Source: a virus. From it: a DNA stretch of 64,000 nucleotides. Made by a program: the position numbers and the translations under genes. Shown here piece after piece: positions 28,440 to 63,800 of the stretch. Where the stretch lies: UHGV virus genome UHGV-0026213; one strand, written 5' to 3'. The notes below the pieces were generated by a model. The model did not search any database, was not told where the DNA came from, and worked only from the letters and a program-made list of their open reading frames with translations. Each line of letters begins with the position of its first letter. Position 1 is the stretch's first letter.

Positions 28440-28470
28440 ATCCCCTACTCCTCCGGGAGTAGGGTTAATT
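28440..28470 (+). terminator. Intrinsic terminator (CCCTACTCC/GGAGTAGGG family)
   Basis: CCCCTACTCCTCCGGGAGTAGGG hairpin followed by a T-run. Confidence 0.6.
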
Positions 28471-28495
28471 CTTTTTCCATCTTAGGAGTATTAAA

Positions 28496-29048: not shown

Positions 29049-29090
29049 ATAAAAGCTACCCTACTCCCGAAGGAGTAGGGTAATCTTTTT
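29049..29090. terminator. Bidirectional terminator between convergent genes
   Basis: CCCTACTCCCGAAGGAGTAGGG hairpin flanked by A-run and T-run. Confidence 0.6.
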
Positions 29091-34425: not shown

Positions 34426-35087
34426 TCGTTTATAGTGAGGTCTTGTCAAAAGCCCCTCGGTTTTTACAAACTCACTTTATGTATAACGCACGGCAGTATT
34501 GGGGCTTTAAAGCCCCTTACTCCGAAGATTGGGAAGTGGTGGAAAAGTTAGCATTTGTATTTTCTCTTTCGTTGTTGTGGGAGATCATTGCACTATACAA
34601 CGCAGGTTGTGATATCCCGGAGAACGGCTTTTTCCAACAACACCTATTCCAAAAATTCGCAGCAACGGTAGAAAATCATGAAGTACGCAAGGAGTGTATC
34701 GGCTACGCAGAGCATTCTGAAGAATTGAGAAAGATTTCCAAATTAGTTATCACGCGGACATGGGCTGAATTCGAAACTTACCCCGAAAAAATAATTTGGT
34801 TTAATCGTGAACAGTTTATTAAAGAGGCAGTCAGTCAACATCCCGTTCGATTAATCGTATTAAAGCCGACCGATCTTGCCTTACGCCACATCTATTCGTC
34901 TCCAGAGGAAATCGTTTTTTCCGCAGGAACAACAGATTATGGTATTTTTAAACAGGGGGATTCTTGGATTCTTCCACACGATTTAGACGGGTATTTGCTC
35001 AGTAGCGATCAGATACATTCGGGTTATGACTCACAGGTGAAGGAGTTTACAGTCGATCCTTTTTTCGCTAAAAATATTCTTAGATAG
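34419..35087 (+). CDS. Hypothetical protein (222 aa)
   Basis: ORF overlapping the upstream stop by 7 nt. Confidence 0.45.
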   Translation: MLIVYSEVLSKAPRFLQTHFMYNARQYWGFKAPYSEDWEVVEKLAFVFSLSLLWEIIALYNAGCDIPENGFFQQHLFQKFAATVENHEVRKECIGYAEHSEELRKISKLVITRTWAEFETYPEKIIWFNREQFIKEAVSQHPVRLIVLKPTDLALRHIYSSPEEIVFSAGTTDYGIFKQGDSWILPHDLDGYLLSSDQIHSGYDSQVKEFTVDPFFAKNILR

Positions 35088-35100
35088 ATATTATCCAGGT
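35085..35100 (+). promoter_or_regulatory. Promoter-like motif TAGATAGATATTATCC
   Basis: Second copy of the AGATATTATC motif, about 35 nt upstream of the 35124 gene. Confidence 0.35.
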
Positions 35101-35123
35101 GTAACACCATTGGAGTTATTAAA

Positions 35124-43753: not shown

Positions 43754-44171
43754 TGGACTTAACGTCGATTTGTTCACCTACTGGTGCCAGCTCCCCTTCT
43801 GTTACTTCAACATCAGGAATAACAGGAACGGGGGGCTGGTAGCCCTGGGTTTCTTCGATTTCCTCATCGTGACGACGTATTTTGATATTGCCACGTTGCA
43901 TGAGGATGCTATTAAGTGCATTCGCCAAATCTTGGTTAGCTTCGCTGTTTTTCTGTGCAGCAGCGACGCGACGTTTGGAAATGATTTGTTTGTCAACGTC
44001 GTTAAGCAAAGACCCCAGCCGGTCTACCGTTTTCAAGTCTTTGTGTGCTTGTGGATCGTCTAAGATGAGATTCACAATCCGTACACGGGCTTGTTGCGTT
44101 TGGCGGAGAAGCGATTCTTCGTCGTCCACATCTCCATCAAACGCCTGATATTTCACTTCTTCGTCAGCCAT
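43707..44171 (-). CDS. Hypothetical highly acidic protein (154 aa)
   Basis: Minus-strand ORF with GAGGTAG SD before the ATG; N-terminus MADEEVKYQAFDGDVDDEE. Confidence 0.5.
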   Translation of the reverse strand: MADEEVKYQAFDGDVDDEESLLRQTQQARVRIVNLILDDPQAHKDLKTVDRLGSLLNDVDKQIISKRRVAAAQKNSEANQDLANALNSILMQRGNIKIRRHDEEIEETQGYQPPVPVIPDVEVTEGELAPVGEQIDVKSIMTAAFARPEQGEQD

Positions 44172-44202
44172 TCTTACTACCTCAATTTCAAAAAGAAGTC
44201 AG

Positions 44203-44219
44203 ACAGATATTATCTACGT
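44203..44219 (+). promoter_or_regulatory. Promoter-like motif CAGACAGATATTATCTA
   Basis: Third copy of AGATATTATC, preceded by TTTCAA about 16 nt upstream; in the divergent region between the 44171 minus gene and the 44243 plus gene. Confidence 0.4.
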
Positions 44220-44242
44220 GAGACATTCTTTAGGAGTGAATT

Positions 44243-44791
44243 ATGTTAACAGGAATAATAACTCGTTTTAAACAACGGTTAGAGAATAATCGTTTAAAAG
44301 CCCTCAGAGAGTCTCTGAAGCAGGAGTTCCATAAGAACACCCACAACCCCTATGTCAGAGTCTTTACCGGCTTACAATTGCTTACGTTGCCTTTAAACAT
44401 AAATGAAGAACCTTTTCGTCCCAGCCTTCGCGGTTTCCTCGAATTGCGTATTAATAACATTGATCTCGTTTATCAACGTTTGGCATTTCTCATTAATGAA
44501 TACCAACGAGCAATTAACAGGAGTTCAATCGAATGGCTACCATTACCTGACGCTTTAAATAAACGAAACGACTTGGCGGAATACCGATGGCTAGACACTT
44601 ATTTTGGGACGTCTAGTCCTGAGGTTGCCGCTTATAAGCTGGGTAAATTACTCGCGCTAATTCAACCTTATGAATCAGCGTTCCTTAAACCGGAGTCCGA
44701 CGAAGACAAAGCGCTGGTAAATCAAACTGCGCATTTATTCCGGGAGTTGGAAACGTTGATTGAACACTACCTTTTAGAACGTCCCATTTAA
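44243..44791 (+). CDS. Hypothetical protein (182 aa)
   Basis: SD TTAGGAGTGAATTATG. Confidence 0.5.
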   Translation: MLTGIITRFKQRLENNRLKALRESLKQEFHKNTHNPYVRVFTGLQLLTLPLNINEEPFRPSLRGFLELRINNIDLVYQRLAFLINEYQRAINRSSIEWLPLPDALNKRNDLAEYRWLDTYFGTSSPEVAAYKLGKLLALIQPYESAFLKPESDEDKALVNQTAHLFRELETLIEHYLLERPI

Positions 44792-44821
44792 TAAACCAGT
44801 AACCCCTTGTAACAAGGTGAT

Positions 44822-45667
44822 GTGATGGATAGCAAAAAAGTAAGTGTGGTCGTGGACGCTGAAGACGAACGTGCAGGCGGACCACTTCAAACACTATATT
44901 GGAATTATAAAGAATTGATCGGATGGAAGCCTTCGGATTATAAACTCGCCGTCGCCAAACATATTCTGTCTCCAGAATTTAAAACACGTTCAAAAGCAAC
45001 GATGGACGATCGAATACAACGTATCTCCACGAAGCTGAGTTCAGGTAACATCCCTGCACTACCTGTCGATCTTACCTGGCGAGGTTTTACAGAAGGGTTG
45101 GTGATTACCGGAGTGGAGACACTGCGGATTTGTGTAACCACTTACCGAGGACACTTCAAAACAAAAACCGTATCTGAAATTACCACACGCGTGCGTGAAG
45201 ATCTCGCTCGGGATTTGTTCGAAGATAACGACGAACGACCTAAAGAGTCTGCAACTGCGCAATTGAACCGTTATTTCCAGAACTGTGGTGAGACCGCAAA
45301 GATGATGGTGCATCCGTTATCTCGGCTAACTTGGACTATCTTCGCAAACATGAAAATGAATGCGGATTGGTGGTATCGTCTTTCCACAAACTTCGTTAAC
45401 GATCCTGCTAACTGTGAGCAAACGCCGTCGAAACGAAATGATTTGCGGCACAACATGCAGCACAATCTAAGGTTAAAAAAGAAGTTTTCCTGGAAATGGT
45501 TTATGAGGGTACTCAAGGCAATTGATGTTCGTAGCTTCGAAATCCTTCTGACCTTAAGGCGTCAGAAAGACAATAAAATCTACGAAGTTCAGGTCACGGT
45601 AAACCTTGACGAATACCAAATTGGAGACCAGAATGAAAATCGACCAAATAACCAGTCAGATAAATAA
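44822..45667 (+). CDS. Hypothetical protein (281 aa)
   Basis: GTG/ATG start region after the upstream stop. Confidence 0.45.
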   Translation: MMDSKKVSVVVDAEDERAGGPLQTLYWNYKELIGWKPSDYKLAVAKHILSPEFKTRSKATMDDRIQRISTKLSSGNIPALPVDLTWRGFTEGLVITGVETLRICVTTYRGHFKTKTVSEITTRVREDLARDLFEDNDERPKESATAQLNRYFQNCGETAKMMVHPLSRLTWTIFANMKMNADWWYRLSTNFVNDPANCEQTPSKRNDLRHNMQHNLRLKKKFSWKWFMRVLKAIDVRSFEILLTLRRQKDNKIYEVQVTVNLDEYQIGDQNENRPNNQSDK

Positions 45668-46907
45668 AGGTCAGTCAGCAATCGATAATTCCGTTAATAC
45701 GGCAAAGAACGCCGCAAACCGCGTACAAACAACGGTGGAAAATGCGGAGCGTGGTATTAAAAACACGGTCGATAGCGTCAACCGATTATCAGAACGTGCT
45801 GGTGAAACATTCAACAAACTGATTGGCGGTGGTAACGAACTGACCAGCAAAATTGGTAACCTTTTTGGCGGTAGTGATACCGCCAGTGTTGGAGGAAGTA
45901 AGACTGCGGGGAGTTCAGCCTCGGGGGTGTCGCCAGGACAAAAGGTTCCCGGTTTTGCATCTAACACCAAAGAAACGCTTCCTGTCCTCGACCCACAAAA
46001 GCGTGACGTTTCTGAACCCTTTAAGAAAAAGGATGAAGATGGCCTAAAAGCGCTAGACTACCTAAGTCCAGGCGGGATGGGGAAACTGTTAAATAAAGGG
46101 TGGGACAGCATCGGCAGCTTAACCGACTCTGTTTTATCAGGTATCGGCACCGACTTTAACTCAGTGAAAAAACGTCTCGAAGGGACGATGAACATTGCTG
46201 GGCAACTGGCTAAACTCCCCTCGGAAGTTAGTCAAGAAGTCAACGGCTTTATGTCCGAAGTCAACAGTATGCGTTATCAAATCACCTCGATCGTTGATGA
46301 CGTACAGCATACTTTCGACAGCTACAAAGACTTAGACGACTTCTTAGCCATCGATAACCTGATTAACAGCTTTAAAGGCAGCAACAGTTTCTCCACGTTA
46401 GATATTAATACCTCTTCGGCGTTGATTTATGGCCTGTCTACCAAACTGAACAGTTATGGTTTACCGGCTAAAATCGAACCGATGCTTCAAGCGATTACCG
46501 ATGCGCAAGCGAAAGAGGTACTGTACGGCGAGCTGATGATTCAGGCAGCAGCGACAGGTAATCTGGATTCAACGGAATACTATCTGGATAAACTCCAACC
46601 GGGGCAAGGGACTCAGATCGCAACCACCGTTATCCAGAACCTTATGGCTAACCTTCGGGTTGAACCCGGTGTCAGTTTCAAAACGTATGGCACTCGTCTA
46701 TTAACGTTATTTAAAGGATTAGATGCAAAATGGGACAAAGCGAAAAACATCACGCCAGAAATGACTGAACTTAAACTTTACACCTATGCAGGCGTAAATG
46801 CGATTCAGGCGCTACTAACCACCGAGAAACGTAATTACGTGATTGCTGCAGGCAGTGTAAGTTACCAGTCTACCGATAAAATCGTGGAAGACTATTTTGC
46901 AATTTAA
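45633..46907 (+). CDS. Hypothetical Ser/Gly/Thr-rich protein (about 424 aa)
   Basis: Start refined to the internal ATG with GGAGACC SD; the ORF-track start at 45606 overlaps the upstream gene. Confidence 0.45.
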   Translation: MKIDQITSQINKGQSAIDNSVNTAKNAANRVQTTVENAERGIKNTVDSVNRLSERAGETFNKLIGGGNELTSKIGNLFGGSDTASVGGSKTAGSSASGVSPGQKVPGFASNTKETLPVLDPQKRDVSEPFKKKDEDGLKALDYLSPGGMGKLLNKGWDSIGSLTDSVLSGIGTDFNSVKKRLEGTMNIAGQLAKLPSEVSQEVNGFMSEVNSMRYQITSIVDDVQHTFDSYKDLDDFLAIDNLINSFKGSNSFSTLDINTSSALIYGLSTKLNSYGLPAKIEPMLQAITDAQAKEVLYGELMIQAAATGNLDSTEYYLDKLQPGQGTQIATTVIQNLMANLRVEPGVSFKTYGTRLLTLFKGLDAKWDKAKNITPEMTELKLYTYAGVNAIQALLTTEKRNYVIAAGSVSYQSTDKIVEDYFAI

Positions 46908-47739
46908 GAGGCCGGTTATGTCCGAACCACAATTACTGCGTTCCGTATTAAAGAAGATCAAAAGCCAGGGTGAAGACAATCAAGCTTTGGCATTAACGCT
47001 GGGTTATCAACCTGGGCGAAATAATCCTAATGGATACGTTAACGCGTCAAACATCGTGCTTACTCCTGATGAGCGCTTTGTTTATGTCCTATACCTTCGT
47101 CGTTTAGGCTACGTTTGTGCGTTACCCGAAAAACTCCCTTTTACCGATGGTATCAACCATCTTAACCTTTACTCTAACGGTCGTACTACCGTAGGGAAAA
47201 TGATCAGTAACTTCTACGCGCAACCTAACGGTGCGAAATTCGACACAATTCACGGTCAGTTTTTAACGTTAGAAGGCTACTATCATTATTTAAGGATCGT
47301 AGACTATCTGTTCTACAAAGGCTACGGAATAAACGCTTTGGGTCGTTTGGAAACTGAATATCCTGACATCCGTTTATTACGCACCCTGACTGGGGCTGAA
47401 TGTATACAACGCGGTCGGCGATTAAAGGCGAGCATTTACGGGGGCACGGATTATCGGCCTGGCGAGTTTAGCGATTACGCGAACGGTGCATTTCAAAACG
47501 CATTACTGCGTAAACTCCGACTCTTGAAGTTTGACGGAAGCTGCTTAGGTAATGTGTTATCGTACTGTCATTCGATGGGATTACCGTTCTTGCATTACTA
47601 CGTTATGAACGGCCGGGTTATTACACCACCCCATTCGGAATGGCTTCCTAATCTGGTGGTTTCTATTGTAGAAAACATCGATTTTAACGACACAACGTTC
47701 GACATTACGAGCGTCAGTGAAAGTATGGGATTAATCTAA
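46897..47739 (+). CDS. NADAR/YbiA (DUF1768)-like protein, putative N-glycosidase or ADP-ribosyl hydrolase
   Basis: KMISNFYAQPNGAKFDTIHGQFLTLEGYYHYL resembles the YbiA core FSNF..P...DG..YPT.EHYFQ. Confidence 0.4.
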   Translation: MQFKRPVMSEPQLLRSVLKKIKSQGEDNQALALTLGYQPGRNNPNGYVNASNIVLTPDERFVYVLYLRRLGYVCALPEKLPFTDGINHLNLYSNGRTTVGKMISNFYAQPNGAKFDTIHGQFLTLEGYYHYLRIVDYLFYKGYGINALGRLETEYPDIRLLRTLTGAECIQRGRRLKASIYGGTDYRPGEFSDYANGAFQNALLRKLRLLKFDGSCLGNVLSYCHSMGLPFLHYYVMNGRVITPPHSEWLPNLVVSIVENIDFNDTTFDITSVSESMGLI

Positions 47740-48398
47740 TGGGATTATTCGATACCCTTGCGCAATTGGAAAAAGCGCAGGAAGAAGAGGTTATTCGCGT
47801 TGCGGGCGAATCCATTAAACGCGAAGTGGAAAAGGAATATTGCGTCTGGGTTAAACCTACGCAAGCGGGATGGGATTGGCTGCACGCACAGTCCACTAAG
47901 ATGTTCATGGACATTCTCATGCCGATAGAAGGTGGGCGTCGCCGTATCCGTATTAAAGAAGACGGTACAGCACAGCTAACGCTTAAGCGTAAATTCCTGG
48001 ACGGAAAGGTTGAAGAGAATTCGGATATCGGGATTAGTTCTGCACTCTCTTTTTACAAGGACGGTTATTTGGCGCACCTGGTGAAACGTATTCACTTAGA
48101 ACCGGGTGAATTAGCCGATAAGGGTGCTAAGCATTGGGATATTGATATTTTCACGATCACCACCGGACACCCCGCAATTGAAGTTTCGGGTGACTTTAAC
48201 GATCTCCTCACTGAGATGCGTAGCAGTACCAGCGTCGGTGACTGGGTGAAAGTTGAACTGGAAGTCGAACGTTACGAGATTGCGGATGTTCTGTCTGTGA
48301 TTCCGTTTGAGTTTGACGGCCATATTCCGGCTACGCCAAAAGATCCTGAAGACCAAGAATATCTTCGTGATTACTGGGATTCAGTTACCCGCATGTAA
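47739..48398 (+). CDS. Hypothetical protein (219 aa)
   Basis: ORF followed by a CCCTACTCC-type terminator. Confidence 0.5.
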   Translation: MGLFDTLAQLEKAQEEEVIRVAGESIKREVEKEYCVWVKPTQAGWDWLHAQSTKMFMDILMPIEGGRRRIRIKEDGTAQLTLKRKFLDGKVEENSDIGISSALSFYKDGYLAHLVKRIHLEPGELADKGAKHWDIDIFTITTGHPAIEVSGDFNDLLTEMRSSTSVGDWVKVELEVERYEIADVLSVIPFEFDGHIPATPKDPEDQEYLRDYWDSVTRM

Positions 48399-48436
48399 CA
48401 CCTACCCTACTCCTGACTAGGAGTAGGGTATTTTCA
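48399..48436 (+). terminator. Intrinsic terminator (CCCTACTCC/GGAGTAGGG family)
   Basis: CCTACCCTACTCCTGACTAGGAGTAGGG followed by TATTTTCATTTTT. Confidence 0.6.
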
Positions 48437-48460
48437 TTTTTACCCTAAAGGAGAATTATC

Positions 48461-48829
48461 ATGCAAGCTCAGTTTTTTAGTACACCCAAAGGTTTCGGTT
48501 TTAAATTCCCTGAATTTGTTTTACCAAAACAAGTTATTGAGGTACCCTTCCCCCGTTATGTGCAATTAGGACTGCGCACTGTACTTGCCAACTTTTCGGG
48601 AAAGACTGTGGAATTTCGTGTGTGGGAAGGTTCGGGAAGTCCTGGTGGTGTTATGTTTGTTGATTACAATTGGATTAAAAGAACAGGTTTTCCGCTTGTA
48701 CGAACAGTTGAGGCTGCTCGTGGATTACCCTTCCACGCTATACTGGGAGATATAACGTTACCTGTAACTGGCGATTATTCTTCTCCTGCGGATGACGAAT
48801 ACCAAATTCATCTTGTTTTGTTGAAATGA
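48461..48829 (+). CDS. Hypothetical protein (122 aa)
   Basis: SD CTAAAGGAG. Confidence 0.45.
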   Translation: MQAQFFSTPKGFGFKFPEFVLPKQVIEVPFPRYVQLGLRTVLANFSGKTVEFRVWEGSGSPGGVMFVDYNWIKRTGFPLVRTVEAARGLPFHAILGDITLPVTGDYSSPADDEYQIHLVLLK

Positions 48830-48889
48830 TTTTTACAGTTGGGAACAGACTTATGTCTCCCAAGACTGCGTTTAAGCGGAGAAACAATT

Positions 48890-49354
48890 ATGCGTGGATA
48901 TATTCTCGATCTTGCAATTTCTGTAGAAGAACTTGTGGAAAAACTCGGCGGTACCGGTCATGGGCTTCATGGGAAGACCAAAAGCATAGCTCATCTTCTC
49001 GAACCAAAATACGAACGGAAACTCCACATGATTGCTTCCGTTCGCAACAAAGCCGCTCACAGGAGAGTTCTTCCCGATCGCATAGACGTCTATGAACAAG
49101 CTGTGGAAGAAACGAGGCTCTATTTAGAAGAACTGATTGGGGAAGAAGAACGGAAACGTCGTTGTGAAGAGGAAATAAATCCCAGCTGTCTGGAACGCGA
49201 AGCGACGTGGAGAGAACGGGCAGAAGAGGCCAAACGACGTAACGAAGAGAAAAGATGGGACGATATGAGTGTAATAGAAAAGATAGGTTGGGGTGCCGGG
49301 ATTGCAATCGTGGGAGCTGCGGTTGCGTACCTTAAAATAAAGTCTCGTGACTAA
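48890..49354 (+). CDS. HEPN-motif protein with C-terminal transmembrane helix (candidate RNase)
   Basis: IASVRNKAAHRR fits the HEPN R-x4-H motif; C-terminal IGWGAGIAIVGAAVAYL is hydrophobic. Start refined to the internal ATG (MRGYILD) with GGAG SD. Confidence 0.35.
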   Translation: MRGYILDLAISVEELVEKLGGTGHGLHGKTKSIAHLLEPKYERKLHMIASVRNKAAHRRVLPDRIDVYEQAVEETRLYLEELIGEEERKRRCEEEINPSCLEREATWRERAEEAKRRNEEKRWDDMSVIEKIGWGAGIAIVGAAVAYLKIKSRD

Positions 49355-49368
49355 ATCGGGTATCGGAA

Positions 49369-49914
49369 ATGAAACAAATACAGTTAACTGATCACGTTAA
49401 TGCGTTTAAACACTTTCTGGATAACGCGGGTATAAAACCTGGCGAACAGTCGGACGCATGGACTGCACATGTTTATGGAAGTATTGGCAAAGTCTGTGAA
49501 TCCGCGACAACACACGACGGGTTGTTTGTTGCTAAAGCGGTGGGTATCGCCTTGTGGGATATTGCTGCTCTAGTTTACGTGATGAATAACGGGGATTTAC
49601 GTCCCCTTGAAAAATCGCTACACCGACTACTAGCCATTAAGAAATGGAAAAACGAACATCCTGAGTCAATCGCGGTTACGTTGATGCCAGAAGCGGTACT
49701 TGCTATCAAAGCGGTACGAAGTTGTACCGCACGCGCACAAATGGAGCGGCGTCTACATCTCGCGACGCTCTTTTATCAATTGGCCAGAATTGTAAAGATG
49801 AACGGCCTAATCTTCGACCGGGTTCTACAGAACGGACGTATAAGTTGGACAGAAGAACTAAGTAGTTCTCCGTTCTATACAAAACTAAAACTTAAAGACA
49901 TTTTGAAGGATTAA
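49369..49914 (+). CDS. Hypothetical protein (181 aa)
   Basis: ORF in the gene-dense plus block. Confidence 0.45.
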   Translation: MKQIQLTDHVNAFKHFLDNAGIKPGEQSDAWTAHVYGSIGKVCESATTHDGLFVAKAVGIALWDIAALVYVMNNGDLRPLEKSLHRLLAIKKWKNEHPESIAVTLMPEAVLAIKAVRSCTARAQMERRLHLATLFYQLARIVKMNGLIFDRVLQNGRISWTEELSSSPFYTKLKLKDILKD

Positions 49915-49915
49915 C

Positions 49916-50224
49916 ATGGAAAACTATTCGGGTTGGGCAATTTCGCAGTGCATTGGCTATTCTTTACGTTCTTTAGTGCGTACAATTTATAACAAAAACT
50001 CGGGTGAAACCATTTCACCACAGTTACTGGGTAAATTGGAAGTCGATGTTAACCACAAATTAAAACAGTTACTCGACAGCCACGTAAGAACAATGCGTTG
50101 GGAGTTCTTACTACGTGGTAAGAAGCCTTCAATTACCGTTGTAGCAGAAGGCAGTGAAATCGTACTGCAATCCAACGCAGACCTGTTTGAAATTTTAACT
50201 GAACTCGAAAAGGACAAAATCTGA
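49916..50224 (+). CDS. Hypothetical protein (102 aa)
   Basis: ORF tightly abutting neighbours. Confidence 0.4.
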   Translation: MENYSGWAISQCIGYSLRSLVRTIYNKNSGETISPQLLGKLEVDVNHKLKQLLDSHVRTMRWEFLLRGKKPSITVVAEGSEIVLQSNADLFEILTELEKDKI

Positions 50225-50544
50225 TGACTGTGAACGACAATATAAAGAAAAAGATTGACGAAATCATAAGCGTCAGTTTAGATAGAATCGAATTAATTCC
50301 CGAAACTAAGGAGATCAAATATTACGTTCCTGCGGACGAACTATTTCCAGGTCTTCTTAGAATCTCACCAAAAAAGGTTGAAGAGGCTAAACGGCAATTC
50401 GAAGTTCGTGGCCTTAAGGTTGACATTGTTAACAAAAAACATTTCCAAGTAACGTATAGTCAGGAAAACATTATATTTAGTCCTGAACAAGCGCAACGTA
50501 ATTTAGATATTTTAACGAAACGAATGGGGAATAATAACAAATGA
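50224..50544 (+). CDS. Hypothetical protein (106 aa)
   Basis: Start overlaps the upstream stop; its stop overlaps the thyA start. Confidence 0.4.
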   Translation: MTVNDNIKKKIDEIISVSLDRIELIPETKEIKYYVPADELFPGLLRISPKKVEEAKRQFEVRGLKVDIVNKKHFQVTYSQENIIFSPEQAQRNLDILTKRMGNNNK

Positions 50545-52076
50545 AACAGTATTTAGCGTTAATGCAAGACATTCTGGATAACGGTGTTGTCAAGAAAGAC
50601 CGCACAGGTGTAGGGACACTATCTGTATTTGGTCGTCAACTACGTTTTGACCTGAAAGAAGGTTTCCCATTAGTTACTACGAAGAAGGTTCACCTGAAAA
50701 GTATCATTCATGAACTGTTGTGGTTCTTAAACGGTGACACTAACGTGAAGTACCTGCAAGAGAACGGGGTAAAAATTTGGGATTCATGGAGGCGGCCATA
50801 CGTAGGTTTTACTGGTAAAGTCATTCGCATTCCACGATTGAAAAAAGAATACGTCCCTTTTAATGGAACTTTTCCTTTGGCCATTCCTAGTTTCGATTCA
50901 ATAGAAGATAAAAAATTGGCATACGCCTGGAAACGAATGATGCATCGCTGTTATGATAAAACAGCACATAACTACCGACATTATGGTGCAAAGGGTGTAA
51001 GCGTTGCTTTACGTTGGCACGACGTAACTAATTTTGTTAACGATGTTAAAAAACTGCAAAATTGGTTTTATAAAAGTAAGAACTGGAATGACTTCGAACT
51101 CGATAAAGATTATTACGGCTCCAATCAATATTGCCCCGACGGATGTGTATGGCTCAGTAGAGGAGAAAACGTCCATCATGCGTGGGTACGCATTATTAAA
51201 GGTGACGGAACACAATACATTTGCCGAACGTATAAACATGCATCCCAATTAACTGGTTTAAGCAAAACATCCATCCACAGATTCGTTAAGGAAGGCATTA
51301 CCCCACATCTTAAAGGAAATAACAGAATCAAAGGTGTAAAAAATTGGATTATGCAAAAAGCTACTACTGAAGACTACCTCTATCGCAACGAAATTAACGA
51401 CGACGGAGATTTAGGCCCAGTCTACGGTAAACAATGGCGAGATTGGGTAGGTCCAGACGGTCGCCACCACGACCAGATCAGCAAAGTTATCCAACAACTT
51501 CGTGAAGACCCTGACTCCCGCCGTATTATCGTTAGCGCCTGGAATGTAGGTGACCTGGACGATATGGCACTTAATCCATGCCACAACTATTTCCAATTCT
51601 ACACAACAGAAATGACGTTGCTTGAACGACTGGATTGGTACGAAGCAAATGAACCGGAAAAATTTGCGAACGCGCCACTTATTAATCACGAAGATATTGA
51701 TGATGAAGAACGACTTCATGAAACTTTAGATCGTGAAGGTATCCCTCGTCGTAAGCTTTCATGTTTTTACATGATGCGGAGCAACGATTACCTACTCGGC
51801 GCGCCATTTAACGTCGCTTCGTACGCGTTGTTAACTCACATGATTGCACAGCAGTTGAACATGGTTCCAGACGAGTTGGTTTATAGTGGTGTAGATGTTC
51901 ATCTTTACTCTAACCATCTGGAGCAGGCAAAACTACAACTTACTCGCGAACCTTACCCGCTACCTAAACTGGTTATCAAACGTAAACCTGATTCCATCTT
52001 CGATTACAAATACGAAGACTTCGAATTAGTTGGTTATCAATCGCACGACACAATTAAAGCTCCCATAGCTGTCTAA
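50541..52076 (+). CDS. thyA: Thymidylate synthase with two in-frame insertions (511 aa)
   Basis: N-terminus MKQYLALMQDILDNGVVKKDRTGVGTLSVFG, and GDLGPVYGKQWR, DSRRIIVSAWNVGDLDDMALNPCH, PFNVASYALLTHMIAQQ, PLPKLVIKRKPDSIFDY all align with ThyA; catalytic Cys retained. About 205 extra aa after IWDSW and about 46 extra aa after QFYTT. Confidence 0.85.
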   Translation: MKQYLALMQDILDNGVVKKDRTGVGTLSVFGRQLRFDLKEGFPLVTTKKVHLKSIIHELLWFLNGDTNVKYLQENGVKIWDSWRRPYVGFTGKVIRIPRLKKEYVPFNGTFPLAIPSFDSIEDKKLAYAWKRMMHRCYDKTAHNYRHYGAKGVSVALRWHDVTNFVNDVKKLQNWFYKSKNWNDFELDKDYYGSNQYCPDGCVWLSRGENVHHAWVRIIKGDGTQYICRTYKHASQLTGLSKTSIHRFVKEGITPHLKGNNRIKGVKNWIMQKATTEDYLYRNEINDDGDLGPVYGKQWRDWVGPDGRHHDQISKVIQQLREDPDSRRIIVSAWNVGDLDDMALNPCHNYFQFYTTEMTLLERLDWYEANEPEKFANAPLINHEDIDDEERLHETLDREGIPRRKLSCFYMMRSNDYLLGAPFNVASYALLTHMIAQQLNMVPDELVYSGVDVHLYSNHLEQAKLQLTREPYPLPKLVIKRKPDSIFDYKYEDFELVGYQSHDTIKAPIAV

Positions 52077-52083
52077 GGGGTAC

Positions 52084-52380
52084 ATGATGATTAATGAGAA
52101 ATCGTACGTGGAGTTAACTTCTTTCGGCATTAGTCGATTAGCTGAGCTAAAAACTGTTACTGAGCGTGCTGGGATAGCATTACAGACTAAAGGTAAGTTT
52201 GATCAAGCTGATATCGAAATCTTAGAGAAGATTTCGGCAACGTTAAAAGACTTACGTGTATTGAATATTCTTGTTGGTAAATTGGGTGGCCTAAGTAACA
52301 AGAAATTGGCCGAAATACACGGAGTGACGCCAAGCAGAATATCTCAAATCATCAGCAAAGCCAAACGCGATTTTCAGTAA
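52084..52380 (+). CDS. Small HTH protein resembling sigma-70 region 4 / LuxR-type DNA-binding domain
   Basis: C-terminal LSNKKLAEIHGVTPSRISQIISKAKRDF is an HTH pattern typical of sigma region 4. Confidence 0.45.
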   Translation: MMINEKSYVELTSFGISRLAELKTVTERAGIALQTKGKFDQADIEILEKISATLKDLRVLNILVGKLGGLSNKKLAEIHGVTPSRISQIISKAKRDFQ

Positions 52381-52437
52381 AGTTGTTTCACATGCAATCT
52401 ATATCTGAACCACCTCGAAACTAAAAGGAACATTGAA

Positions 52438-52884
52438 ATGTCTAAAACTCATGTTAACTATAACATCGTAGTAGAAGAATTATCAAAAGGTTTAACTGAT
52501 CTGGATTCTAAAGATAATCCGTTTACCGATCGTTATGGTCCCAATGCCTTATCTGAATTTCGTACTATCCGCTACGGTACAGGCAGGCAGACAGGACTTA
52601 CAGACTTCGGTGTCGAGTTAGCTAAGAACCATAAAGGGAAGGTATTATTCGTTAACCCAAAAGGGTTCTTAGAGGACGATGTGCTATTCCGTTTGGGTCT
52701 CGAAGACTTACCGGAGAATATCACGCAAATCATTGGTTATCAGATGGGTACAGAAAAAGAAAAATACAGCCTTGTTATTGTAGACGACGCTGGGGTTTTC
52801 TTTAGCATTTTCCGTTACATGAAGTTTTTCCGCTTACTAGCAAACTCAGTAACTAAAGACGTTGTAATACATTTAATGGGTTAA
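52438..52884 (+). CDS. Hypothetical protein (148 aa)
   Basis: SD AAAAGGAAC upstream. Confidence 0.45.
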   Translation: MSKTHVNYNIVVEELSKGLTDLDSKDNPFTDRYGPNALSEFRTIRYGTGRQTGLTDFGVELAKNHKGKVLFVNPKGFLEDDVLFRLGLEDLPENITQIIGYQMGTEKEKYSLVIVDDAGVFFSIFRYMKFFRLLANSVTKDVVIHLMG

Positions 52885-53028
52885 TCAGTGGGGTTAGTTC
52901 TATGGAAGAATTAGAGGCGGTTCCCTGTTACATTCCTAGAAGACGTGTTATAAAAGAATGTTACATCGATCGTATTTTGATCTCTCGTATCAAGAAAGGT
53001 CCAAGAAAACATCAAAACAAGAAGGTAT

Positions 53029-53062
53029 TTATTTATAAATACTTCGAAAAGGTTATAATCCG
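53029..53062 (+). promoter_or_regulatory. Sigma-70-like promoter candidate (TTTATA-N16-TATAAT)
   Basis: GGTATTTATTTATAAATACTTCGAAAAGGTTATAATCC about 40 nt upstream of the 53101 gene; also contains TATAAATA. Confidence 0.35.
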
Positions 53063-53100
53063 ACCTTACTGATTAAATTAACTCAGGGAGTAAATTCATT

Positions 53101-53490
53101 ATGTCAATCGATATCTACGTTTATTCATACTCAAAATCCGCTGTAAAAGAATCCGTGCGTCAGGCTTGGGAGCACCAATATTACGTCGATCATGTTGACG
53201 ACATACTCGGAGAAATATTCGATCAGGGTGAATTAATGTGGACGGAAAGGCTGTCGTTTTGTTGGAACGCATTTAACAAACTTAAATCCGAATTCAATAT
53301 AACGACGGTATGCGGTAGCAGTGAATTCGCAATCAATAAAGAACAACTCACCGCTTTTAAACAATATATTGAAGAATTGGATCAGCTCATTCCACGCGAT
53401 GAATGGAAACAGCGCGCGTTGGAAGAATTGCAAAAGCTAATCGAAACTTTCGATTTTGAAAGTAATTATCTCACTTTGCACACCGATTAA
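53101..53490 (+). CDS. Hypothetical protein (129 aa)
   Basis: SD GGGAG upstream. Confidence 0.45.
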   Translation: MSIDIYVYSYSKSAVKESVRQAWEHQYYVDHVDDILGEIFDQGELMWTERLSFCWNAFNKLKSEFNITTVCGSSEFAINKEQLTAFKQYIEELDQLIPRDEWKQRALEELQKLIETFDFESNYLTLHTD

Positions 53491-53498
53491 GGTGAACT

Positions 53499-53684
53499 AT
53501 GGGGGCTAATATGTTAGACGATGTTCTTAATTTCACGATAACGTATTTCGAGCCGAAGAAGTTCCGTACCATTGTTACACGTTGGTGCAAAGGGCCACGT
53601 AAAGGACGTAAACGTTTCCAAGTAATCCAATTTGATTATTCCAAGTTCCTTGAATCTAACCCATTCGAGAAGGAGGAACAATGA
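53499..53684 (+). CDS. Hypothetical small basic protein (61 aa)
   Basis: Short ORF; weak. Confidence 0.3.
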   Translation: MGANMLDDVLNFTITYFEPKKFRTIVTRWCKGPRKGRKRFQVIQFDYSKFLESNPFEKEEQ

Positions 53685-53906
53685 AGAAGCCATATTTTCA
53701 TAACCTCAGATTCTTTACAGGTACTCTATATTTTATTGGTTACAACCGTGTACGTAAGGGACCTGGTAAATCGAAAGTACGCACTGTGCAATATAAAAAG
53801 GCAATGACCGCGTCAGTTCCATTACGGATGGGCCTGCTTCTGTCTCACATTCGCCATCGTTAAATCAAAACTGTTAACACCTTTGTAAGAAATTTGGGAA
53901 CTAAAA

Positions 53907-54050
53907 TGACTGAAGAAGTTAAAGTAGAAACCGTTAAAGAAACTGATGAATTTGCAATCCCTGGGTTAGACCCGGAAGCAACCGTAGAGAAGGGAGCCGA
54001 CCCGACCACGGAAGACGATAACTGCTCAGGCGGGGCTTGCAAAATTTAAC
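53907..54050 (+). CDS. Small acidic protein (about 47 aa), below ORF-track size cutoff
   Basis: Hand-read ATG with upstream GGGAAC..AAA; MTEEVKVETVKETDEFAIPGLDPEATVEKGADPTTEDDNCSGGACKI; followed by hairpin GGGGTGCT..AGCACCCC and T-run. Coordinates approximate. Confidence 0.3.
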
Positions 54051-54118
54051 AGTTCCTGGGGTGCTTATGTAGCACCCCTAATCCTTATTCTTTTTGTTTA
54101 AACTAATGGAGTTTTAAA

Positions 54119-54952
54119 ATGGGCGAACGTTTTGACATCAACACTATTTACAACATCGTGGTTAATCCTGGTCAGCACCTGGAAGAAGTTAACGCACAAC
54201 TGCGCGCTCTGAATGAGAATGCAGTACAGTTCGATGCTATTTACACAATTGGTGTAAACCCTGGTACCAACCGTATTCGTGTAGAAGGTAAACGCCACAC
54301 CGGTAATCAAGAACTGGACATCGAAACAATTGTAGCACCTATTAAGCTTACCGATGCTGTTTACAACGGCACGGTAATGCATACAGAATCTGTTCTAGTT
54401 TGCACGATCGCAAAATGTGTAAAACTCGTTAAAGGTTGGTCTAAAGAACGTGGGATTCTCGATAACGGTAAACTGGAAACCCAAATCACGAAGTTCTTTG
54501 AAGAGTTAGGTGAAATTGCGGCGGGTATCAGTAAAAACAAACCTGAACTGATCATGGATGGTATTGGTGATGCGTTGGTGGTTCTGGTAAACATCATCGA
54601 ATTAGGGGATGCGTATTCTGGTCACCTTACAGTGGCAGAAGACTGCATCGAGTCTGGTCTACGCTTAAACGTGGAAGACGTAGCTGAAGTTGAAGAAAAT
54701 TTAAACAACGCTGGATACCCACATCAACAATACCTTCACGCTATTGAAAGTTTTGCCACAACCTTTATGGAAGGTAAAGATCATGGTTTCGATTTCGTTA
54801 GCCTGGGTTTAGCTCATCTTGCCCGTATCGCCTTGTATTACAAACTGGATATTCGCCATTGTTTCTCTTTGGCCTGGCACGAAATCAAAGACCGTAAAGG
54901 TTATCTGAACGCCGACGGTATCTTTGTAAAAGAAGCAGACCTGGCGAAATAA
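54119..54952 (+). CDS. MazG-like nucleoside triphosphate pyrophosphohydrolase (putative)
   Basis: QITKFFEELGEIAAGISKNKPELIMDGIGDALVVLVNIIELGD resembles the MazG EExxE...DxxGD helix pair. Confidence 0.5.
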   Translation: MGERFDINTIYNIVVNPGQHLEEVNAQLRALNENAVQFDAIYTIGVNPGTNRIRVEGKRHTGNQELDIETIVAPIKLTDAVYNGTVMHTESVLVCTIAKCVKLVKGWSKERGILDNGKLETQITKFFEELGEIAAGISKNKPELIMDGIGDALVVLVNIIELGDAYSGHLTVAEDCIESGLRLNVEDVAEVEENLNNAGYPHQQYLHAIESFATTFMEGKDHGFDFVSLGLAHLARIALYYKLDIRHCFSLAWHEIKDRKGYLNADGIFVKEADLAK

Positions 54953-54956
54953 ATAA

Positions 54957-55008
54957 AAGTACCTACCTCCGAAAGGAGGTAGGTAGACTTTCTTATTTTT
55001 TTCTTTTT
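54957..55008. terminator. Bidirectional terminator between the rightward block and the right-hand leftward structural genes
   Basis: CCTACCTCCGAAAGGAGGTAGG hairpin followed by a long T-run. Confidence 0.65.
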
Positions 55009-55572
55009 TTAAGCGCCTGGAACAATCCCAGAAGAGATATACGTCAAACCGTCAAGTTCAGTGACTTTAATCAACTTCGAAATATCCTTACCGTCGGACG
55101 GCAGCTCTGTTAAGTACACTTCCAGCCGCCCTGTCCACGCCAAAGACGTCCCATTCATGATAATGATGGTTTTATCTTTGCTGTCTGGTGCAGCTGTTGG
55201 GTTCTCAACTTCGTCGTCAGTAATCTGTAAATTGTACTTATTGCGGAAAAGCTGTAGTACCTCAGATACCGTAGCCGCATTAACACCCGCAACAGAAACT
55301 ACAAAGTCACCTAAGAGGTGCTCTAAATCCAAACGACGATAAATAACGTCAATTTTACCAAACGTTTTCTGTTCAATAATTCCCTGGACGCTAAGTTGGG
55401 TATTTAATCGCGTAAATTGGGTTTCTGGTGTTTCTACCGCAGGAATATGTGACGGTGTACCAAAATTCAACTTATCGATTGTAATACCTTTCTCTACCAA
55501 ACCAGGATTCTTTTTTACTAATAACTCGTAAACCAATTGTTTTCCTGATTTACCTAATAGCGTATTAGCCAT
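55009..55572 (-). CDS. Hypothetical virion-associated protein (187 aa)
   Basis: Minus-strand ORF directly downstream of the structural genes; no motif. Confidence 0.45.
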   Translation of the reverse strand: MANTLLGKSGKQLVYELLVKKNPGLVEKGITIDKLNFGTPSHIPAVETPETQFTRLNTQLSVQGIIEQKTFGKIDVIYRRLDLEHLLGDFVVSVAGVNAATVSEVLQLFRNKYNLQITDDEVENPTAAPDSKDKTIIIMNGTSLAWTGRLEVYLTELPSDGKDISKLIKVTELDGLTYISSGIVPGA

Positions 55573-57806: not shown

Positions 57807-60800
57807 TTACGCTGATTTACGACTAACGTCGAGTTGCGGCGCGGGTTGAGTTATTGACACGTTACGTGACGCCGAACCCGGAGCGGTTGACGCCGGGTTA
57901 GCCGGTCCGTTTTGCATAGCCTGTGGCCGCTGACGAAGAATTGTTACAATCTCTTTCAGATAGCCTGCAGACTCTTTTGCAACCGCCAGCTGTTGTACGC
58001 TGATCGGATCACCGCTGTTCACTGTGGAACCGGTCTGAGCATCGGAAGTCACCGTTGGTGCAGGACGGGCTGATTTCTCCAGCTGCTGTCTAGCACCTTC
58101 TTTTACTTTAGCAACATCCTCTTCGGCCAGGCCATCAGCACGTGCATTTTGACCCACCGTTTCTACAACAACTGACGCATCACTCGGTGTAACGTCACCA
58201 CCAGGGCTCGGCACAGCCGGACCACCGCCCGTCGCAGCTTTAATGTCATCAGCCCCCATTGCACCTTTGTCTGCTAAAGCGGAGTCACGATTCGCCTCGT
58301 TCGCGGCTGGCAGGTTATCTGCCGGGCCAGAAATAGACGGATCGTTAGCAGCGCCCGCAGCGATGGCTGGGGATGACGGCATTGGCGTTACGCCTGTCGT
58401 CAAGTCTTTCAGCGATGCCTGGTTAGCCGCGATCGCGTTTGTTCCTACAGCACCAATCTTACCACCCATGATGTTGAGCACTTCATCCAAACTACGCAAT
58501 TTTCCATTCTTGTAGAAAATTGTGCTGTTTGCCGCGATTTGATCGGCCGACGCACCACGCGACGATGGCCCGTTCGGATCACGCTTCCATTCTTGCAGGA
58601 ATTTCTTACCGCCACCTTGTCCTAAGAAGTGGTAGAGGTAAACAGCTGCACCTGGAGGATCGATACCACCTAAATCCTTTCTGGCTTTCTCGATATTATC
58701 ACGAATATGACGGACGCCAAGCAGAGCATTCGCCCACGGGTCATACTGGTTGGTTTGCGGGATACCATAACGTCTCGCATAAGCTTTCATCTGCGCACCC
58801 CAGGTATCGTTGATGAACTGGAACAAGCCAGCCGCAGAACTTCCTTTAGCTTTGATACCGTATCTAAGCCCAGATTCTGCTTGTGCCATTCCCAGTGCTA
58901 ACGCTGGAGGAACACCCATCATCTTCGCTACGTCTGTAATCAGTGCTGCAACCGCATTCAAGTTAGGCTTCAATCCGTCACCCAACGTTGAAATTGGATA
59001 CTTAGCCGCTAACGTTTTATAGTCACCGTCTTGCATATCGCCAAGTTTCACGCCGAAGTTACCGGTAGTAAATGCAGCGTAATTCTTAGCTCCCATCTGA
59101 CCGTAAGCACCGGCCAAATCGTTTGGTGTGCCGTAATTCCCACCGTCGTTTGCCGCTGGTTGCAATAGGTCACGATAAGAGGAGGAGGTGTTCATCTGTG
59201 GTCGAGACGGTTGCTCCTTCTCATCGTCAGTCAAGAACATCTGAGTCGCGCGATCTTTTCGCTGCCAGTTCACACGGAAACCCGCAGAAGGCGTAGCACG
59301 CAGCGTTTTACGTACTGCCAAATCAGCTTCCTTAGACAGTTCTTTCAGGTTCTCTAACTCCGTTGCAACTGAACCGGCGTCGGTGTTAGCGTCTCCCCCT
59401 AACGGGTTAAACGGTACCTCCCACACTGACTGACGAATACCCCCTTTCAGGTTGTATGCACCACGCATCATCAGTGCGATTTCATACAAGAACCCACCCG
59501 TAACACGTAGGTCCATCGGATCGGCAGCAGGAACATAACGTTTTACCCCAACGATGTACGTCATGAAGACAGGTAAGAAGCGGTTATAGAACCAGTTCTT
59601 GTACCGATCTTCTTTTGGTCCACCAATGGCGTCGGGCGCAATCACCGCAATCGCACGTTTCCAGTCGCCTTTATACGTACAACTTTTCACATCGGTGTCT
59701 TGCAACACTTGACGTTCCAAGAGCGTATAGAGGTTACGGGTTGTTTGAGTAATACTCACCGCACCATAAGCTTTCAACCTTACGGACTCCAAATCACGGA
59801 GATCGGTTTCTTTAGGTAAACTTCTCCAGTCGACTTGAACCTGAACTTGTTCGGTGCCGTCTTCCCAACCTTCGACTTTCGCAACTTCTTTGTTGCGTTC
59901 CGCATCCGCTTGAGCCAACGCTTGGGTCGATTCTGCCACAGAAGCAACTTTGTGTCCTTCGGCCACACCGCCTGTAGCATTTACATCCTTACGTTTTTCA
60001 TCACGACGCATGTTAATCGAACGAAGCACGCGTTCTTGCGCTTCAACGACTTCTTCGCCTGACAAAAACTCGGCCGGGGTAAACGTTACGAAATCCCACG
60101 CTTTAGAGAACCAACCTTGGTTAACCTTGCGGGGATCTTCTAATGCACGGAATGCAGGCGCATCTTTCGACATCTTCATTTTGTTGAAGATGTTCAGCAT
60201 GTCCGCTTTCGACACTTTCGCTGGATTACCGACGTCTGCTAACGCGATATCGTTATCCATAGATTTCAGTGCCGTAATCCAACGTAAGTAAATGGGCACA
60301 AAACGTTGTAGCATAAACGCACTAAACGCCAGCATTTCGCCTTTGTCTTCTACGTTAGTACCAAACCCTTCGGCCAGTTTCTTCACGTCGTCACCGGACA
60401 AACCACGCAACTGTGCTTGGCCATTCTCTGTATAAGAGATGTACGGTTTCAAGTTGTCTTCTAAATAACGTGCTTTTGCGCCATCGTCGGAAGACCATTC
60501 GTCGTGATCTCTAAATCCGTACTGTGCCAATCGCATGTTATCCAGATACTGGGCATTTACACGGGTTGCCGTTTTATACGCAAACCAAGACAACGCAGCG
60601 CCTGCAGCGACCAAACCGATGATCGGCCAGCCAACCGCAGTTACCACTGCAGATGCCGCTGTCGCGACAGCACTCACCGCAGGGACAGCCAAACGGGTCA
60701 CAGCAAACTTACCAACGTTCCACAACGCTTTACCTGCAAACCCAACCGGCTTAAAGATTCCCCATTTTGCAACTTTACCTAAGATTGAACCCACTGTGCC

Positions 60801-63800
60801 TAAAATACTCACAATCGGCCCTACTAACGGTAGCCCTTTAAGGAAATCCATTACCCCGCGTTTGCCGCCTTTCTTCTCAGCCTCTTTCTTAGCCTTTTCC
60901 TCTTCCTTAGAACGACGACGGCGTCGGAAGAACTGGAAGTAATCGCGTTTTTCATCACTGGCAGGCGGCTTGTTACGTTGACCGAACTTACTGAACATGG
61001 TTCTTAACAAACCATCCGAAGCACCTGCTTTTTCCGCAGAATCACGCATGGTGTTAAACCATGACATTTCTTGAAGATTAACCATTCGGTTCAGGCGTTC
61101 CAGTAAAGCCGACCCAACGCTACGGGCTTTCTGTTTCCCTTTATTAATCACACGTCCAGCGCTATCCGTTACGGTGTCTAAGTCTTCTTTTGCCGCATCG
61201 ATGATACGTGTTTTAGACACCTTGCCTCTTGCGTAGATGTGTTGACGATAAAACTCAGCAACATCGTCATCGCGTCCTGCTAAACGACTCTCCATTCGAT
61301 AACGTGTTCCAATGTCGTAACGCGGATCACGGAAGGTATCGACCATATCGCTTGCACGGCCACGGAAACGGTCAAACCAATCACGTGCTGCACCACCCCA
61401 ACGAGAAAGACGACCACCTACCGCACTACGGTAACGGGACATTCTGTCACGCATCCGACCACGCCAATCCCGGAACCCTTGAAAATGTTCACGGAACCCA
61501 TCGCGTATGTCCTTAGCACGTTGGAATAATCCTTTAACTGAACTGGCCCCCGTATTCCGCTCCATCTGTTCTGTCCAGGTGTCATCTTCAGGTTCACCTG
61601 GCAATCTCCGGTTAAGGAGTTTGTAGATACGGATTAGGATGTGGTTAGTTTTACGGCCATTCGACCACGAGAACACACTAAACCCACCACCAGAGCCCCC
61701 TTCCTTACGGTTCTGCCACCAACGTGTCAACGGATTATCAGAAGCCAACTCTTTGAGCTTCTCAAACCCACGTTTTGCATTGTTCCACAGACGAGCTGGC
61801 ATTCCCGTTACGCGGGAAATCATGCTTTGTAAACGGGTTTTCTCTGCGCCCTCTGGAACCTCATTTAACCACTCGCGTGCTTTCTCGAACAACGAAGCCG
61901 CTTTAGGCGAAATGAAACCCAGAAGTTTCTTCGGTAAAGTCACAGCTTTGTTTACCGCCGTTCCTGCTTTCCCAGAAATGTACTGGAAAAGCGCTTGAAC
62001 TTTACCGCCTTTGTAGAAGCGCAGTTTACCTGCGGCAGCCAAATCAGCAGCCGCTAAGATTAAATTACCCGCTTCGTCGACGATGTCACGTCCCAGTTTA
62101 ATATCGTCGAGAGTTTTAAGTTGAATCAGCTTCTCAGTTTTCGGGTCAGCCTGGTAATATTCCCCAGCCTCTAAACGACTTCCTTGTAATACGACGTTAC
62201 CACGTTCATCGTAGATGTCGCGAACGCCTAAAACACCTTTACCGAAAGCTACGGCAGAATTCCAACCCGTCGATAATGTACCTGTTACTAACCCTTTCAG
62301 TCGGCTAAATACGCCGGGACCTTCGGAGGAACCGCCTGAGAATTTCCCACGAATAAAACCACCTAATGCTTGTAGGCGATCTTTCCCGCGCAGGAACAGA
62401 TTCTTACCAAACCGTCCTACACCAGAACCGGTATCCCAAAGCACCCCAGCCCAGCGACGTAACAAACCTGTCTCGCCTAGTACAACACGTTTGCGCTTAC
62501 GACGACGTTTACGGCCTGATTCACCCGAACTTTCAGGTTCGTCACCGTCATCACGACTACCGCCTAAACTGGCTAGAAGAATACCTTCCTCATCCATGTT
62601 CTTAACGTGTTTGAGGATATCTTGCACTGTGCTAGATTCGGGCTGTTTACGTACAGCATCAATCAAACGGTCGAATTGTTGCTCCAATCCGGCGTTCGTG
62701 TCTGGACGACTGCTTAAAAGTTCAACAAAGTTAGTGGATTTCTCTCCATAAAGTACCGCAGCGAGTTGGCGTGCGCTTAAACCGCGACCACGACCTCCTT
62801 TTCCACCGCCACGTACATTGGACAGTTCTTTGTCTTCAAAGCTCGGCTCTGCGCCTGCACCCATCCGACGCAAGTAATCACCCAGCGCAGAACCGTTCTG
62901 CAATTTACGCTGAATCTCTTGCTCACGGGTTAACGAACGTCCAGAGCGGGTCTTACCCATCGACAGGTCATTAAATAACGTATAGGGATCGTTAATGTCC
63001 TTATCGACCTCGAAAATGTCTTTCTTCGCATCGTATTTAAAAATACCGGAATCACGAAGTGCATTCTCGCCGTAAATCACAGACGCAGCATCAACAGTGT
63101 CCTGACGTGCGCGAATCGTTGACTGGATAGCGGCGATTTTGTTTGAAATCGCGTTGCTCAGTTCATGGTGTCCACCAACCAGTTCCGCAGAACGGGCTTC
63201 TAAAACACCCTGAATCGCTTCCACAGCGTTTGCGTTCATGTACCGATACATGTGCATCGGGTCTTTCAATAAAGACCCTACGTCGAACGCTTTCCCTTCT
63301 GAGGCACGAGATTCGATGTAGTCCGCTAATGCTTGACGTGTTTTATTATCGAGCGTTTTATCTTTATCGATAAAGTCGACAGTGTCGTTGATGTAAGTCT
63401 GTAAACGTTTACGCTGATCGTCATTAGCGACCGCTTTACGGACACGATTACCAATAACTTTACGATCCACCATACCGCGCGTGGTCAGGTCATAAACCTG
63501 ATCGTGGTGTTCACCATATCCCCGACGAATAGATTTGTTAATCTCGGACAGTAACGTCGGAATAACTTCAGTGATACTAAGGTAAGCTTTACGATCGAAT
63601 TTCGCCGCCGCAGAAAGAGATTCCGCAGAGCGATCGTCTAATGCTAACGTTTCGCGACGTAGCGGGTTAACCAATCCCACGTCGTTCAACAGGCGGAAAA
63701 AGTCGGCTAACCATCCGCTCGACTCCCCCGCAATAGCTGAGTTAGAAAGTGACGATTTATTACTAACGATGTAATTCAGCTTTTCCAACCGCTTCATTAC

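Follow-up and report, generated by a model that had tools for sequence, protein, structure and literature searches.

The DNA considered here is a stretch of 64,000 nt from the viral genome UHGV-0026213 (the window), and our subject is a gene on its plus strand for a small helix-turn-helix (HTH) protein of 98 amino acids (aa), which follows directly on the thymidylate synthase gene thyA (Table 1). The open reading frame (ORF) begins with ATG-ATG and runs for 98 codons to a TAA stop. The Shine-Dalgarno-like AAGGGG stands 3 nt and the thyA stop codon 7 nt before this start, and a spacing of 7–10 nt between thyA and the HTH gene is found also in the homologous loci L012, L014 and L004; the two genes probably share a transcript and are coupled in translation. 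Among 5.8 billion proteins searched, 13 close homologues at 78–97% identity were found, on metagenomic contigs as long as 225 kb, and 11 of the 13 are also 98 aa long. Codon comparison with four homologous loci gave pairwise ratios of non-synonymous to synonymous substitution (dN/dS) of 0.06–0.27 at dS up to 2, and among close relatives aa 47–95 are almost invariant while the N-terminal helix varies more. Given the Shine-Dalgarno-like site, the homologues of the same length and the dN/dS values, this is therefore a genuine gene, translated, conserved and under purifying selection, and its limits are exactly those proposed in an earlier note made from the DNA letters. It has no paralogues within the window. 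The plus-strand gene run to which it belongs is bounded by a hairpin at 48403–48430 and another at ~54058–54078, and neither the terminator scan nor a reading of the intergenic DNA found a terminator between the upstream site and the HTH gene or between the HTH gene and the downstream hairpin. Along this run lie five ORFs without Pfam match, thyA, the HTH gene, a phrog_2586 protein, small ORFs and a MazG-like protein.

Table 1. Coordinates of the HTH gene, its predicted structural elements, neighbouring features in the window and selected homologues (locus designations starting with L refer to homologous loci).
Feature	Coordinates	Strand	Basis
Coding sequence of the 98-aa HTH protein, stop included	52084..52380	+	ORF list, sequence, homologues, dN/dS
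Shine-Dalgarno-like AAGGGG, overlapping the thyA stop codon	52075..52080	+	Sequence reading
Helix 1, aa 5–35, N-terminal hairpin arm, putative dimerisation module, most variable part	52096..52188	+	
Helix 2, aa 41–67, second hairpin arm, aligned with sigma region 4.1 in its C-terminal part (LKDLRVLNILVGKL)	52204..52284	+	AlphaFold 2 (AF2) model, TIGR02937 and FliA alignments
First HTH helix, aa 72–79, NKKLAEIH	52297..52320	+	AF2 model, conservation, HTH pattern
Recognition helix (predicted), aa 83–97, PSRISQIISKAKRDF	52330..52374	+	AF2 model, conservation, presumed sigma-70 alignment
thyA, 511 aa, left neighbour of the HTH gene	50541..52076	+	Pfam Thymidylat_synt 2.8e-105
In-frame homing-endonuclease-derived insert in thyA, ~203 aa	50790..51398	+	phrog_2081 HNH endonuclease 3.3e-29
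Terminator-like hairpin and T-run, nearest such site upstream of the HTH gene	48403..48440	+	Terminator scan
AT-rich motif, consensus ATATTAYYTANGTGA	13019-13042, 17407-17430, 35086-35104, 44205-44223	+	Upstream of plus-strand gene blocks
Hairpin-HTH fusion protein, Klebsiella phage LPKP23	L001 4971-5645		Homologue P0014 of the same type
Plasmid ~81-aa homologues	L015 7717-7968; L019 629-871		

The C-terminal half of the protein (aa ~44–98) is modelled by AlphaFold as a three-helix HTH with a predicted local distance difference test score of 95.9, residues 72–91 fit the classical HTH pattern perfectly, and the segment is basic (net charge +4, isoelectric point 10.45). Which class of HTH is it? 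The sigma-type model NCBIfam TIGR02937 (sigma70-ECF) aligns positions 105–159 of its 165 to aa 41–95, spanning regions 4.1–4.2, at E 1.6e-4 and 21.4 bits (cut-off 42.9). In Pfam, HTH_3 (PF01381) matches just 26 residues at E 9e-4 and 19.7 bits (threshold 23 bits), Sigma70_r4 (PF04545) matches at E 5e-3 and 16.8 bits (cut-off 24.1) and HTH_24 at E 8e-3, while the PHROGs give weak ‘transcriptional regulator’ and ‘sigma factor’ matches only. The family speaks more clearly: in an alignment of 25 members, with matches to PF04545 counted at E ≤ 0.01, Sigma70_r4 is found in 14 (best E 9.1e-8), next to HTH_3 in four and Mor (2.4e-6), KorA (the KorA/TrfB type, PF16509) and GerE (PF00196) in two each. 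Profile alignment with hhalign to a protein carrying both Mor and Sigma70_r4 gave a probability of 91.7%. The best sigma-type matches among PDB sequences are region 4.2 of WhiG and FliA (E 0.006–0.03), the FliA alignments taking in aa 40–90; operator-bound DeoR, DNA-bound HetR, Tn3 resolvase and a small-terminase HTH are among the further matches listed, and the sigma matches rank among the highest in sequence identity, mostly 23–32%. By sequence comparison, then, the closest relatives of the C-terminal ~55 aa are regions 4.1–4.2 of sigma-70 factors (FliA/WhiG and ECF, extracytoplasmic function), with a 4.1-like L..LR..I followed by G.s.keiAe..gvs.sRvsQi for 4.2. The sigma region 4-like HTH announced in the earlier note is thus real, though below threshold when the protein is taken alone.

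The most conserved positions of the family are R85, Q88, G69 and A76; R85 and Q88 are nearly invariant in alignments A2, A3 and A4, and K73, A76 and E77 are invariant in A4. Compared with what we take to be residues 581–599 of E. coli sigma-70, 9 of 19 residues are identical. R85 and Q88 presumably correspond to sigma-70 R586 and Q589, and in place of the residues that we take to give specificity for the –35 element, R584, E585 and R588, the protein has P, S and S. Region 2 is lacking, as the earlier note had also seen: Sigma70_r2 (PF04542) does not match the protein at E ≤ 10, the N-terminal 40 aa are modelled as a single long helix, unlike sigma region 2, and no region-2-like domain was found among the 57 window ORFs scanned. 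In contrast to complete sigma-70 factors, the protein has none of regions 1–3 and so no core-binding or –10 function, and a complete sigma factor is rejected. Other classes fit less well. The LuxR/GerE type, which the earlier note had named beside sigma region 4, falls away, as the chain stops at the recognition helix (83–97 of 98 aa) and lacks the fourth helix, and the protein has no GerE match of its own. For the XRE/Cro type the score is below threshold, and three helices are modelled in the domain where that type has five. Nor does the Mor/C model, PF08765, match the protein at E ≤ 10.

The full-length AF2 model consists of a helical hairpin followed by the HTH. Relative to sigma-70 region 4, the two helices that precede the HTH are extended into a hairpin of ~30 residues, which superposes on hairpins known to form homodimers, namely those of the 2L4HC2 designs, of the dimerisation domain of CheA and of a histidine-kinase DHp domain. 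A Foldseek search of BFVD returned uncharacterised members of the same family only. The nearest counterpart in design is the Mor/C pair of phage Mu (PF08765; PDB 1rr7 and 9l0x), likewise small phage-encoded proteins in which an N-terminal helical module is joined to a C-terminal HTH of the same class; the helical module of Mor is known to dimerise. However, Mor and C are longer (~130–140 aa), no beta-strand linker is predicted in the 98-aa protein, and Mor and C act with the host sigma-70 RNA polymerase (RNAP), on which the phage group of the window does not depend.

The reading that we favour, and which we put at an even chance, is that the protein is a small regulator that binds specific DNA sequences, probably as a dimer, and shares the build of Mor and C. 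In such a protein helices 5–35 and 41–67 would form a hairpin that pairs with that of a second copy into a four-helix bundle, giving a dimer that carries two HTH units, as in the Mor and C design. The recognition helix (PSRISQIISKAKR) would read a specific DNA sequence via R85 and Q88, and with P, S and S in place of R584, E585 and R588 its target would be other than the –35 TTGACA element. The gene would be expressed in an early or middle nucleotide-metabolism operon, directly after thyA, and its product would repress or activate a few genes of the phage or the host and would not be a general initiation factor. The simple repressor suggested in the earlier note thus stays alive, in the wider form of a repressor or other regulator. 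Several points weigh against this interpretation: taken alone, the protein stays below the curated cut-offs of Pfam and NCBIfam throughout, the dimer is derived from single-chain models, no PHROG family covers the family members, all of which are annotated as hypothetical with none characterised, and if the targets are phage genes, the protein would have to enter the phage nucleus. Nor was a candidate binding site found, as neither palindromes nor motifs recur around the gene or its operon; the operator search (k-mer enrichment in intergenic DNA, recurrent 10–14-mers and local inverted repeats) yielded ribosome-binding sites, terminators and an early-promoter-like motif only.

With a profile built from the close homologues and a relative from a Klebsiella phage, 44 proteins were recovered out of 1.84 billion representatives, about half of them 73–145 aa long, and the sequences sampled have the same layout; the 25 members of the family alignment were taken from these 44. 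By tblastn, relatives occur in 12 of 50,697 phage records, which are Klebsiella and Serratia jumbo phages of ~300 kb and Klebsiella phage Eowyn; the Dickeya JA jumbo phages also hold family members, and the metagenomic members sit on contigs of 110–280 kb, one with a PhiKZ-type capsid gene. A locus search with a narrower alignment and with the single protein found two viral contigs only. The family is thus nearly confined to jumbo phages, and it is matched by neither a PHROG nor a Pfam model of the whole protein. SPN3US and Erwinia phage Caitlin carry other, unrelated genes between thyA and the phrog_2586 gene, with no homologue among them. Between L004 and Caitlin the HTH gene is a clean one-gene presence/absence difference. 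It is therefore an accessory gene, sporadic among jumbo phages. As it is missing from close relatives with the same transcription system, it is no general component of transcription, and an essential role there finds no support; because it is accessory and sporadic, its role is probably local fine-tuning or host interaction and no core mechanism. The neighbour-joining tree of the family is star-like, and monophyly of the thyA-linked members is not resolvable from it.

Two branches depart from the common layout. In the Klebsiella and Serratia jumbo phages the hairpin and HTH form the N-terminus of a 224-aa protein with a C-terminal extension of 130 aa, for which (in P0014) no Pfam, PHROG or PDB sequence match was found. 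A more distant branch, of uncharacterised proteins of ~81 aa, is encoded on plasmids and chromosomes of proteobacteria and matches the family profile at E 1e-10 to 1e-16. These proteins, some annotated as sigma-70 region 4 domain proteins, combine a coiled coil with the same HTH; in contrast to the 98-aa protein, their N-terminus is shorter and of another type (an ELERKV coiled coil), while the HTH is 25–45% identical. Those on enterobacterial and Burkholderia plasmids are annotated as hypothetical. In Klebsiella and Raoultella the setting is a ColRNAI-replicon plasmid of 4.6 kb; on an E. coli plasmid-like contig the homologue has genes for resolvase, ParE/Phd and ParA/KorB as neighbours. Plasmid maintenance regions typically hold small HTH repressors, and we count this setting in favour of a regulator for that reason.

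The thyA gene itself is unusual. It encodes 511 aa in the window compared with 339–362 aa in L012, L014, L004 and L021, the difference being the in-frame insert, which aligns to positions 100–257 of the 433 of phrog_2081 and also has a weak HTH_17 match; neither an HNH catalytic domain nor intein-like junctions could be recognised in the insert, nor did the window show a group I intron. Such introns, identified with Rfam, do interrupt thyA in L011 (4314–4644, 58.5 bits) and L005 (5401–5644, 57.4 bits), both of which carry a P0057-type HTH gene. The thyA of L011 is in three pieces, with a second intervening sequence of ~610 nt (3343–3951). We conclude that thyA is a mobile-element hot spot in these phages, which makes this neighbourhood of interest independently of the HTH gene, as a place of introns and homing-endonuclease insertions. 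The HTH gene directly follows thyA in three lineages: the window clade (L010, L012, L013 and L014), the 55–58% identical P0057 clade of Caitlin-like phages (L004, L005 and L011) and the 35% identical P0017 (L021). In six other lineages it lies away from thyA. Since the thyA of L021 is 64% identical to that of the close relative L014, the same level as SPN3US thyA, the adjacency may, on these sequence comparisons, be inherited synteny.

The assignment of the window to a phage group comes from its other genes. A 723-aa virion protein is 63–64% identical to proteins of SPAsTU, SPN3US and phiEaH2, with homologues in 289 phage records, including phages of Pseudomonas, Erwinia, Salmonella and Vibrio, and other window ORFs match PHROGs of the phiKZ/SPN3US group, while at nucleotide level the window has no match among the 50,697 phage records. 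On this sequence evidence, the window belongs to a jumbo phage related to phiKZ, of the SPN3US/phiEaH2/Machinavirus type. To our knowledge, no phage-specific transcription factor of this nucleus-forming jumbo-phage group has been characterised, and its control of transcription is poorly understood. Phages of the phiKZ/SPN3US group transcribe with their own RNAPs, which have no sigma homologues (PMC7824862, PMC13282480), and lineage-specific HTH transcription factors have been reported from them (PMC7824862). Around the HTH gene (44000–55200) sigma-70-type promoter-like sites are rarer than expected from shuffles (11 vs 20.3 ± 4.7), which fits a phage group that does not rely on the host sigma-70 RNAP. 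Although the family itself is uncharacterised, its kind is well known, that of small HTH regulators with a sigma-4- or Mor-like domain, and a lineage-variable family of small sigma-4-like HTH proteins would be a tractable candidate for a regulator in sigma-less jumbo phages.

Could the protein act on an RNA polymerase instead? The similarity extends over both region 4.1 and region 4.2, as the TIGR02937 and FliA alignments show, and so the protein might be a mimic of sigma region 4 that binds either the beta-flap tip of the host RNAP, where it would compete with the host's sigma region 4 and so shut off or redirect host transcription, or, as an accessory specificity module, the flap of the phage's own sigma-less multisubunit RNAP, comparable to T4 gp33. 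It counts for such a mimic that phiKZ-type RNAPs have no sigma homologue, that the factor which lets the non-virion RNAP (nvRNAP) use middle promoters is unknown (PMC7598289) and that the flap partner in these phages is an open question (PMC7824862). T4 gp33 and AsiA, which replace or bind sigma region 4, are also small helical phage proteins (~90–110 aa). However, these T4-type factors act on the host RNAP, and the 98-aa protein differs from a pure protein-binding mimic in its basic HTH with R and Q retained at the DNA-contacting positions; membership of the AsiA/gp33 group is rejected, as neither Pfam nor the PHROGs show any similarity, and the fact that SPN3US, Caitlin and almost every other sequenced phiKZ-like phage lack the gene speaks against a general component. 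We therefore regard a mimic of this kind as unlikely, and the anti-sigma factor or appropriator of the earlier note fares no better, since a basic HTH fits DNA binding better than a protein decoy. An optional ‘half sigma’ adaptor, recruited by some jumbo phages of a lineage whose two multisubunit RNAPs have no sigma homologue, which would dock on the flap of the phage nvRNAP or of the host RNAP and at the same time contact DNA, with promoter specificity or host shut-off as the outcome, we think improbable; if true, it would bear on how the phiKZ-type nvRNAP recognises middle promoters. As for a minimal sigma factor that directs an RNAP to promoters by itself, also put forward in the earlier note, the region-4-like sequence is in its favour and minimal single-HTH sigma factors have been described in other (group 2) jumbo phages (PMC7824862). 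Here, though, it is highly improbable: the protein has no region 2 and no –10-recognition or core-binding determinants, no partner supplying region 2 was found among the scanned window ORFs, the RNAPs of the phage group are sigma-less, sigma-70-type sites are depleted near the gene, and the gene is missing in close relatives.

A different origin is suggested by the place of the gene. The HTH protein could stem from the traffic of mobile elements at thyA, as a domesticated or leftover DNA-binding module of a free-standing homing endonuclease, or it could be a factor that helps or blocks homing at thyA. The adjacency to thyA in three lineages, the HNH-derived insert in the window's thyA, the group I introns of P0057-type relatives and the one-gene difference between L004 and Caitlin are all compatible with this, and the family profile also picks up the HTH repeats of the HNH endonuclease P0022. 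Yet the gene lies away from thyA in twice as many lineages, where it is adjacent the synteny may be inherited, and purifying selection acts over its whole length including the hairpin, unlike in a decaying remnant. A homing endonuclease as such is rejected, as the protein has no nuclease domain and its best match of this type (phrog_59, E 0.14) is not significant and falls over the HTH. Taken together this makes a tie to the mobile elements quite unlikely. A DNA-binding role outside transcription, such as recognition of DNA for packaging in the manner of a small terminase, partition or organisation of the phage DNA, we consider quite unlikely as well. It would draw on a weak PHROG match to a small terminase (E 0.13) and on the ParA/KorB and resolvase genes next to the distant plasmid homologues; but these matches cover the generic HTH alone, so that a small terminase is rejected, the setting is one of nucleotide-metabolism genes and not of structural or packaging genes, and a sporadic distribution is at odds with essential packaging or partition. 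A regulator of the Mor/C design remains the interpretation we prefer.

The earlier note had also suggested a possible connection to recurring promoter motifs, which finds no support. The AT-rich motif of Table 1 has four matches in the window (at 13024, 17412, 35086 and 44205) where 0.11 would be expected, including two exact 17-nt copies, CAGATATATATTACTTA. Each phage of the group has a conserved early-promoter element, read by the injected virion RNAP before phage gene expression (PMC7598289), and by analogy the AT-rich motif is probably an early promoter for the virion RNAP. The copy nearest the HTH gene lies 7.9 kb upstream, past a terminator, and a link between motif and gene is unlikely because the early element is read before any phage protein is made.

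Some further features of the window can be added. The terminator hairpins at 28456–28475, 29058–29083 and 48403–48430 have a common stem, TACCCTACTCC...GGAGTAGGGTA, which suggests a repeated terminator cassette and not independent hairpins, and an Rfam scan of the window gave no match. At the end of the gene run, the 51-aa ORF at 53894–54049 (+) ends in ...DDNCSGGACKI, and a C-terminal DDNCTGGACKI is conserved in the counterparts that likewise precede the MazG-like gene in SPN3US (gp032) and Caitlin (gp246). On the minus strand, 1684–10225 holds a pair of neighbouring giant virion proteins, paralogues of 1402 and 1440 aa with common phrog_7449, phrog_7557 and phrog_8078 segments, and a separate ORF of 2058 aa occupies 57807–63983.
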